From IMG/VR virus record IMGVR_UViG_2648501392_000011: DNA of 5,373 bases, one strand, 5' to 3'. The notes under the pieces are model-generated. The model searched no databases. It worked only from the letters and a program-made list of their open reading frames with translations, and was not told the DNA's origin. Numbering within the stretch: position 1 is the stretch's first letter; the number at the start of each line of letters is the position of its first letter. Of this stretch, positions 2,810 to 3,184 are shown in pieces. Origin of the DNA: a virus (taxonomy: Duplodnaviria; Heunggongvirae; Uroviricota; Caudoviricetes). Made by a program: the position numbers and the translations under genes.

Positions 2810-3184
2810 ATGGCAAAAGATCTGAAAACACTGGCGCTGGCCAGACTGTCGGGGTTCCGTCATAAAACGGTGAAGGTGCCGGAATGGGGAAATGTCAGCG
2901 TGGTGCTGCGGGAGCCTTCGGCAGAGGCCTGGTATCTGTGGCAGGAAGTGCTCAATGGTGATGGAGAGGATGACGATACCCTGTCGGTGGTGGCGAAAAC
3001 CCGCCGTAACCTGGAAGCGGATGTGACGCTGTTCTGCGATGTCCTGTGTGATACGGACCTGCAACGGGTGTTCACTCCGGACGACCGTGAGCAGGTGCTG
3101 GCCGTCTATGGTCCGGTACATGCCCGGTTGCTGCGTCAGGCACTGGAACTGATCGCTGATGCAGAGTCGGCCAGAAAAAAGTAG
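2810..3184 (+). CDS. Tail assembly chaperone (lambda gpG-like)
   Basis: ATG at 2810 to TAG at 3182-3184. 124 aa, acidic. Ends ...ADAESARKK on a slippery heptamer. Conserved position between the major tail protein and tape measure genes. Confidence 0.8.
   Translation: MAKDLKTLALARLSGFRHKTVKVPEWGNVSVVLREPSAEAWYLWQEVLNGDGEDDDTLSVVAKTRRNLEADVTLFCDVLCDTDLQRVFTPDDREQVLAVYGPVHARLLRQALELIADAESARKK
3175..3181 (+). promoter_or_regulatory. Programmed -1 ribosomal frameshift slippery heptamer A AAA AAG (G to G-T)
   Basis: In the G frame the codons are aga-aaa-aag-TAG, so positions 3175-3181 read A AAA AAG, the same heptamer used in E. coli dnaX, followed directly by the 0-frame stop. The -1 frame is open from here (aaa aaa gta gcc cgc ccg gaa att cgc ttt ctg ATG...) into the 3208-3489 ORF. 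Confidence 0.65.

Follow-up and report, generated by a model that had tools for sequence, protein, structure and literature searches.

The locus considered here raises the question of how the second part of a two-part tail assembly chaperone is translated when it lies in the -1 frame relative to the first. It is found in a 5,373-nucleotide (nt) stretch of viral DNA (record IMGVR_UViG_2648501392_000011; the window, in what follows, denotes this whole stretch) in which Pfam searches and nucleotide comparison identify the genes for head-tail joining and the tail module of an Escherichia coli lambdoid prophage of the Shiga toxin (Stx) type. Gene G (2810-3184 including the stop, + strand, 0 frame) encodes a tail assembly chaperone of 124 amino acids (aa) that matches Pfam PF06222 (Phage_TAC_1) over its full length (E=1.7e-61). 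The T segment (3181-3489, + strand, 102 aa followed by TAA at 3487-3489) lies in the -1 frame after the shift and matches PF06223 (Phage_tail_T; E=5.9e-19). The evidence gathered below indicates that T is very probably reached by a programmed -1 ribosomal frameshift of the G/G-T kind, belonging to the tail module of a lambdoid (Stx-phage-type) prophage. An initial annotation made from the sequence alone had proposed such a frameshift, and the protein domains, the gene order, the prevalence of the -1 frame among homologous loci and a published reporter measurement all agree with this proposal. The site is in fact already known: it had been predicted, catalogued as a true case and measured, and it can be regarded as real and ordinary.

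The slip site and the G-T overlap

Direct reading shows that the G frame ends with GCC AGA AAA AAG TAG. The slippery heptamer A AAA AAG thus occupies positions 3175-3181 (+ strand), in phase with G as X XXY YYZ. Directly 3' of it stands TAG (3182-3184, + strand), which is the 0-frame stop and a possible pause element. The last stop upstream in the -1 frame is TGA at 3157-3159, and this frame is then open from 3160 to the TAA at 3487-3489. The -1 frame is therefore open, and G unfinished, over an overlap of 25 nt (3160-3184, + strand) which contains the heptamer; AAAAAAG occurs nowhere else on the + strand of the window. The shifted product is a 226-aa G-T fusion carrying both Pfam domains, Phage_TAC_1 and Phage_tail_T. 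Its junction reads ...SARKK/VARPEIRFLMRLALRLGR..., and the part that follows the shift begins with VARPEIRFLM. The heptamer, the adjoining stop, the -1 frame open into T and the junction peptide (...SARKK/VARPEIRFLM...) are all as first described in the initial annotation.

The first residues after the shift form a linker, VARPEIRFL (3181-3207, + strand), which is intergenic in public records and coding in the T frame. It is followed by the ATG that those records take as the start of T (3208-3210, + strand), and which is probably an internal Met codon of G-T. This ATG has a weak Shine-Dalgarno (SD) match and is replaced by a Leu codon in four homologues.

The site in the published record

The segment 2810-3508 is identical at 697 of 699 nt to the ECs_1801 G-T region of prophage Sp9 in E. 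coli O157:H7 Sakai, and the G protein differs from ECs_1801 at one residue out of 124. In the survey of Sharma et al. (2014; PMC4066793), ECs1801 represents the prophage cluster A_AAA_AAG_25, described as 'tail assembly chaperone; [true]' and comprising 53 genes. The same authors equated this cluster with the GeneTack programmed-frameshift cluster #10 (PMC4066793).

Moreover, a 75-nt sequence tested by Antonov et al. (2013) as a member of their cluster 'Phage_TAC' is exactly that of window positions 3155-3229. In a GST-MBP reporter in E. coli, it yielded 7% +/-0.79 frameshifting (PMC3711429, Suppl. Table S2); according to a note to the supplementary table, the real insert was 18 nt longer upstream and 45 nt longer downstream. 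A second tested member of the cluster, GCG_GGA_AAG_CCG_TAA, gave 6% (PMC3711429). The frameshift reporter suggested in the initial annotation had thus, in essence, been published. For the bare A_AAA_AAG heptamer, the lacZ reporter of Sharma et al. gave 0.29%, a value that rose to 4.3% with the stimulators of IS911 and to 39% with the pseudoknot of IS3.

Conservation of the junction across homologues

Homologous loci were sampled from species-representative genomes (55 loci, G identity 46-64%), from viral contigs (80 loci) and from a few annotated phages. The junction could be aligned without gaps for 59 sequences, of which 57 are distinct, with G proteins 45-88% identical to that of the window. 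These sequences are related, so that the counts below are not independent.

T lies in the -1 frame in 139 of the 141 loci having both parts. The core tetramer A_AAG (3178-3181, + strand), which forms the invariant part of the slip site, is present in all 57 distinct junctions (columns 24-27 of alignment A2, 59/59 sequences), and the full heptamer A AAA AAG in 43 of them. An alignment of related junctions had been proposed as a check on the heptamer, and this is its outcome. Judging from the alignment, the conservation of A_AAG would exceed chance, even though the sequences are related. In the mEp234, HK97-like group (L005, L006, L007, L019, L142), the site reads CGG GAA AAG (G_GAA_AAG), which is not a perfect X XXY YYZ heptamer, and G stops five codons after it. 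Together with the tested GCG GGA AAG CCG TAA, this subgroup indicates that the P-site codon of the slip site varies considerably within the family.

The position of the G stop also varies in the aligned junctions: it adjoins the heptamer or follows it by 1, 4, 5 or 8 codons. Wherever G stops, the slip site is found at a constant distance of ten codons before a conserved F-L/M-M-x-L-A-L-R-L/M-G motif, and the peptide running from the slip site to this FLM-LALRLG motif retains a V-x-x-P pattern (V-x-x-P-x-x-x-F-L-M for the linker up to the Met). Upstream of the site, variability is highest at the third codon positions of the G frame (1.9 bits vs 0.8 and 1.2 for the two other positions). From the site onward, over the 27 nt that precede the ATG, it is highest at the third positions of the T frame (1.39 bits vs 0.79 and 0.79). 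The SD match of the T ATG at 3208 amounts to -3.5 kcal/mol, and is weaker than those of G (-5.8) and of the major tail gene (-10.3). In Xenorhabdus (L023, L034) and Providencia (L054, L059), the Met at 3208 is replaced by Leu codons. Homologues in which T would be an independently initiated gene, with its own SD and start, had been named at the outset as the observation that would speak against a frameshift; the weak SD match and the four homologues devoid of the ATG point the other way. Because the linker is conserved with T-frame periodicity, and because the ATG has a weak SD match and is missing in four homologues, these sequence patterns indicate that the nominally intergenic 3185-3207 belongs to G-T and is read by ribosomes in the frame of T.

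Proposed mechanism and function

It can be proposed that, for most ribosomes, translation would end at the TAG (3182-3184), the product being the chaperone G of 124 aa. The others, a few percent, would slip back by one base on A AAA AAG, the single tRNA-Lys of E. coli leaving AAG and re-pairing with AAA. After the slip, reading would go on with GUA GCC CGC ... in the -1 frame and give the 226-aa G-T protein (...SARKK-VARPEIRFLM...). A AAA AAG is the most shift-prone heptamer in E. coli. The single tRNA-Lys of this organism, with mnm5s2U at position 34, pairs less well with AAG than with AAA (PMC5009743).

By analogy with phage lambda, the tape measure protein would be coated by G and by the G part of G-T, and recruitment of the major tail protein would fall to the T domain. 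The frameshift would then set a fixed G:G-T ratio, that is, the ratio of the two chaperones used for building a long tail, in a module common to many Shiga-toxin-converting and other lambdoid prophages.

Weighing the alternatives

Several points weigh against a programmed ribosomal frameshift at this locus. For this phage group, neither tail-assembly genetics nor proteomics of virions or cells were found in the literature consulted. The annotations of BP-4795, of Stx phages and of PGAP genomes call T a separate gene starting at ATG 3208. The values of 7% and 0.29% were obtained with two distinct reporters, so that a strict comparison cannot be made; their difference suggests some stimulation of the slip site, and neither an SD-like element nor a conserved RNA structure was found. 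As for the stop that adjoins the heptamer, it is lacking in 17 of the 57 junctions. The signal may also sit in a defective prophage, since E. coli 14EC047, which has the same IS200C insertion downstream of T and is the only fully matching public copy inspected, carries portal and tape measure genes annotated as frameshifted. Finally, the GST-MBP reporter (PMC3711429) detects a fusion protein without separating ribosomal from transcriptional slippage.

This last point bears on the possibility of an extra A being inserted by RNA polymerase along the run of six A (A6, 3175-3180), which would bring G and T into one frame and produce an identical protein. The run is indel-prone at the DNA level (A9 in L050; A6 in place of A7 in L052), and longer runs (A8) in several homologues, e.g., L009, L013 and L120, make polymerase slippage plausible there. 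However, the run of the window has six A only, whereas efficient polymerase slippage needs longer ones (An with n>7; PMC3711429). Moreover, nine distinct junctions that have only GCA AAG or GAA AAG (A3-A4) show the same -1 arrangement with the same spacing, and what is invariant in the family is the in-phase A_AAG, a ribosomal motif, while the length of the run varies. Because lineages with only GCA AAG or GAA AAG keep the arrangement, the slippage would be that of the ribosome rather than that of the polymerase, and transcriptional slippage appears unlikely.

Alternatively, T could be made alone, by initiation or by termination-reinitiation at ATG 3208, 23 nt after the G stop, the heptamer being incidental. 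An ATG is found at this position in most homologues, close enough to the G stop for coupled translation. Public records also follow this view: T is a separate coding sequence without slippage join in BP-4795, Stx2a_WGPS8, vB_EcoS-689R5, mEp234 and the RefSeq/PGAP E. coli genomes inspected, with a start placed at the internal ATG (3208), except in one record, which puts it 11 nt past the stop of G. Among the records inspected, only that of the distant Burkholderia phage Bcep176 has a slippage join, so that public annotation otherwise omits the G-T fusion. It should, however, be noted that the SD match of ATG 3208 is weak (-3.5 kcal/mol), that Leu stands in place of this Met in the Xenorhabdus and Providencia loci, and that the 27 nt before the ATG encode a conserved peptide with T-frame periodicity. 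Furthermore, the distance from the slip site to the T domain stays constant though the G stop moves, and a fusion product containing GST was seen from this exact sequence (PMC3711429). Expression of T by this route instead of the frameshift is thus highly unlikely; independent initiation of T is possible as a minor extra route.

That the G/T split would be a decayed gene, resulting from a frameshift mutation or a homopolymer sequencing error in a once-single G-T gene, is scarcely credible and is refuted by its family-wide conservation (T in the -1 frame at 139 of 141 loci from many genera, all the -1-frame junctions examined having a 0-frame stop no more than 11 codons from the site), the single-ORF (open reading frame) versions known (P0001, P0002, P0004, P0012 and L050) being rare and the three that were checked (L050, P0001, P0002) showing an extra A, an implied 11-nt deletion and an excursion at the A run.

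The two loci in which T is not in the -1 frame differ in the length of the A run. In Candidatus Symbiopectobacterium endolongispinus (L050:2805-2825), A9 is found in place of A8, and this one extra A fuses G and T in a single frame, with the predicted sequence AKKKVTQPGMQFLM. In Serratia sp. L9 (L052:2850-2870), A6 is found in place of A7 and T is in the +1 frame. Whether through mutation of prophages undergoing decay or through sequencing errors in a homopolymer, either origin is conceivable for these indels. Single-ORF G-T proteins are also present in metagenome and genome collections (P0001, P0002, P0004, P0012, P0101). As deduced from the proteins and not from DNA, P0001 would have lost 11 nt (TAGCCCGCCCG) immediately 3' of AAG, a deletion that would fuse the frames, and P0002 would show a reading-frame excursion beginning at the A run. 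The close single-ORF proteins were not retained as natural fusions, since they resemble the outcome of indels or of faulty assembly in the A run or its vicinity. P0101 (33% identity, 240 aa), encoded on a contig of 3 Mb, is possibly a distant homologue in which the fusion is natural.

Search for stimulatory elements

No SD-like element was found upstream of the slip site: the best duplex with the anti-SD sequence in the 18 nt before the heptamer reaches -3.0 kcal/mol, and 74% of the 18-nt segments within G pair at least as strongly. In agreement, A_AAA_AAG_25 was scored 'N' for SD (Sharma Table S4, PMC4066793). Some homologues do carry such an element, e.g., GGGAGGA in Bcep176.

Downstream, the initial annotation had pointed to a tgcgc/gcgca stem about 35 nt away. 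This stem exists as a local 8-base-pair (bp) hairpin, UGCGCUCC-GUCU-GGGGCGCA, which pairs 3216-3223 with 3228-3235 (+ strand), 34 nt after the heptamer, within the LALRLGR codons; it is modestly stable (z=-1.79). Across 57 homologues, 69% of its cells are paired, with almost no covariation, and a register slid by +2 does comparably. The distance of 34 nt, the 69% pairing, the conserved codons and the near absence of covariation rule it out as a conserved element, and the hairpin is probably not a stimulator.

A long-range stem, 3187-3193/3311-3317, closes a fold of roughly 130 nt (3187-3317, + strand) and begins 5 nt after the heptamer. This fold agrees with the hairpin predicted by Sharma et al. 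for A_AAA_AAG_25 in its size (130 nt), its spacer (5 nt) and its first stem (7 bp) (PMC4066793). The ddG/nt of the published hairpin, 0.020+/-0.023, is not above background (Sharma Table S8, PMC4066793). In the window, the minimum free energy of 3182-3325 has a z-score of -0.05, 88 of 200 shuffled sequences folding as well, and the fold was rejected as a stimulator. Likewise, RNAalifold gave no consensus pairs for the 106-nt junction of the 59 homologues. The view that no convincing hairpin lies close downstream thus stands, since the only correctly spaced stem closes a fold no better than those of shuffles.

The adjacent 0-frame stop

The stop directly adjoins the heptamer in 40 of the 57 distinct junctions (70%), and this character changes state about six times on a neighbour-joining tree. 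It is present in all nine junctions in which the P-site codon is non-slippery (GCA or GAA before AAG). The Val codon read after the shift is GTA only where GTA followed by a purine makes a stop: it is found in 40/40 of the junctions with the adjacent stop and in 0/17 of the others, which have GTC, GTT or GCC after the shift. All three patterns speak in favour of a role of the stop. The 17 junctions that do without it speak against one, and the adjacent stop is therefore not essential for the family.

In E. coli, UAG followed by C is a weak termination context. The adjacent UAG-C is plausibly the leading candidate stimulator, acting as a termination pause. With the poorly recognised UAG-C in the A site until release factor 1 (RF1) arrives, the tRNA-Lys would be held on AAG in the P site, and would then slip to AAA. 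Stops at or next to the slip site have been described elsewhere. Weiss et al. (1987) named such sites 'shifty stops', and the TAG directly 3' of the shift codon (3182-3184) corresponds to them as far as the sequence can tell. At the G_GAU_UUU_UGG_UAG site of pea enation mosaic virus (PEMV), the nearby stop is needed for efficient -1 shifting, and changing it to a sense codon strongly reduces the shift (PMC5009743). Slow decoding in the A site, on the other hand, weighs more in +1 than in -1 shifts (PMC5009743), which counts against a role of the stop.

We consider it possible, though somewhat doubtful, that the adjacent stop is the main stimulator of the shift, in place of an RNA structure or an SD element. 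A contribution of at least two-fold to shifting can be envisaged with about the same reserve, or slightly less. If true, stimulation by the stop would explain the GTA pattern, the retention of the stop beside non-slippery P-site codons and the 7% vs 0.29%. If the stop is the main stimulator, the G:G-T ratio would depend on termination efficiency, i.e., on RF1 activity and stop context. The family offers, in any case, a natural series on -1 shifting without RNA structure, in which the stop is 0, 1, 4, 5, 8 or 11 codons away and the P-site codon is slippery or non-slippery.

Comparison with known frameshift systems

The closest known case is that of ECs1801/ECs1802 in Sakai Sp9, where the site is the same and the difference resides in the IS200C insertion that the window carries downstream of T. 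The paradigm of such systems is G/G-T of phage lambda (Levin, Hendrix & Casjens 1993; Xu, Hendrix & Duda 2004, 2013, 2014; reviewed in PMC5009743), in which, as in the window, overlapping ORFs lie between the major tail and tape measure genes, the second is in the -1 frame, and a low-percentage shift takes place on a slip site near the end of G. On sequence grounds, the system of the window appears to share the features of this paradigm, namely its position, the -1 relation, an in-phase slippery sequence, the lack of a conserved T start and the T domain. Tail assembly in lambda needs G as well as G-T, and neither protein is found in the virion (PMC5009743). The T proteins belong to the same Pfam family (PF06223; E=2.1e-14 for lambda T), whereas lambda G belongs to PF06894 (Phage_TAC_2) and the G of the window to PF06222 (Phage_TAC_1). 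Pairwise BLASTP of the window G and T against lambda G and T gave no match, so that only Pfam profiles link the T domains. T has 102 aa in the window and 144 aa in the annotated lambda ORF. Unlike in lambda, the 0-frame stop directly adjoins the heptamer, and this heptamer is A AAA AAG instead of G GGA AAG.

The heptamer had been classified from the start as dnaX-type rather than lambda-type. This holds, and A AAA AAG is not unusual for G-T sites, since phage Bcep176 uses it and the g-t site of an archaeal virus is A_AAA_AAC (PMC5009743). The dnaX gene of E. coli has the same heptamer and the same reliance on a single tRNA-Lys (PMC5009743). Its signal also comprises an SD-like sequence before the heptamer and, a few nt after it, a stem-loop, and the shift reaches about 50%; in the window, no SD-like element and no conserved nearby structure were found, and the shift is of about 7%. 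Of the tripartite dnaX-type signal, the window thus has the heptamer; an SD-like stimulator 6-17 nt upstream and a conserved stem-loop or pseudoknot 5-9 nt downstream were not found. The two systems also differ in their outcome, the shifted product being shorter in dnaX and longer in the window.

The pair gp69/gp69' of Bcep176 is homologous to the G-T pair of the window (41.5% identity over 91% of the fusion). It is annotated with a slippage join as a 'lambda G/T equivalent', and its heptamer is A AAA AAG as in the window. There, the heptamer is located 11 codons before the G stop, with GGGAGGA 7 nt upstream, and the site looks more dnaX-like, with no adjacent stop.

The prophage and the neighbouring genes

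The region 2700-3527 is 99.6% identical to the Stx-converting phage BP-4795 and to many Stx1/Stx2 phages, and close copies of the G-T region are present in 1246 of 5426 complete E. coli genomes (about 23%). The same arrangement as in the window, IS200C included, is found in E. coli 14EC047. Upstream of the tail genes, Pfam identifies a gp6-like connector (550-876), a head completion protein (887-1237), an HK97 gp10-like protein (1234-1680) and a gp17 tail completion protein (1677-2021).

The tail genes follow in the order major tail gene, G, T and tape measure gene. The major tail protein gene (2088-2804, + strand), annotated as major tail subunit in public records, matches Phage_tail_2 and Ig_2 above the Pfam cut-offs, and the lambda-like tail-tube family Phage_TTP_11 scores just under its own. 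The Ig-like C-terminal domain of its product spans residues about 149-233 (Pfam Ig_2, Ig_3, I-set). Many tail tube proteins of siphophages have such a domain; here, it is encoded in frame, without addition by frameshifting. The tape measure protein gene begins at 4253 and runs off the window (4253-5373, + strand; Pfam TMP_3, E=1.1e-58, and public annotation).

T is now split from the tape measure gene by the IS200C insertion (about 3524-4235, + strand), the boundaries of which were set by comparison with BP-4795, where it is absent. The insertion carries an IS200-type Y1 transposase (ORF 3616-4125, tnpA 3667-4125, + strand; Pfam Y1_Tnp, E=2.3e-37), labelled 'IS200C family transposase' by PGAP in the identical arrangement of 14EC047. 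It was inserted in the T-run associated with a terminator-like hairpin, at a distance of 16 nt before the GGAGAAAGG ribosome-binding region of the tape measure gene. This 9-bp hairpin, AAAACCTGC-TGTG-GCAGGTTTT, at 3499-3520 in the short spacer between T and the tape measure gene, is also present in BP-4795 and is therefore a feature of the phage and not of the insertion. A T-run comes after it on the + strand (TTTT, which GCCC follows in BP-4795); the scan scored this hairpin on the - strand only. The segment 3499-3520 thus appears as a terminator-like element within the late tail operon.

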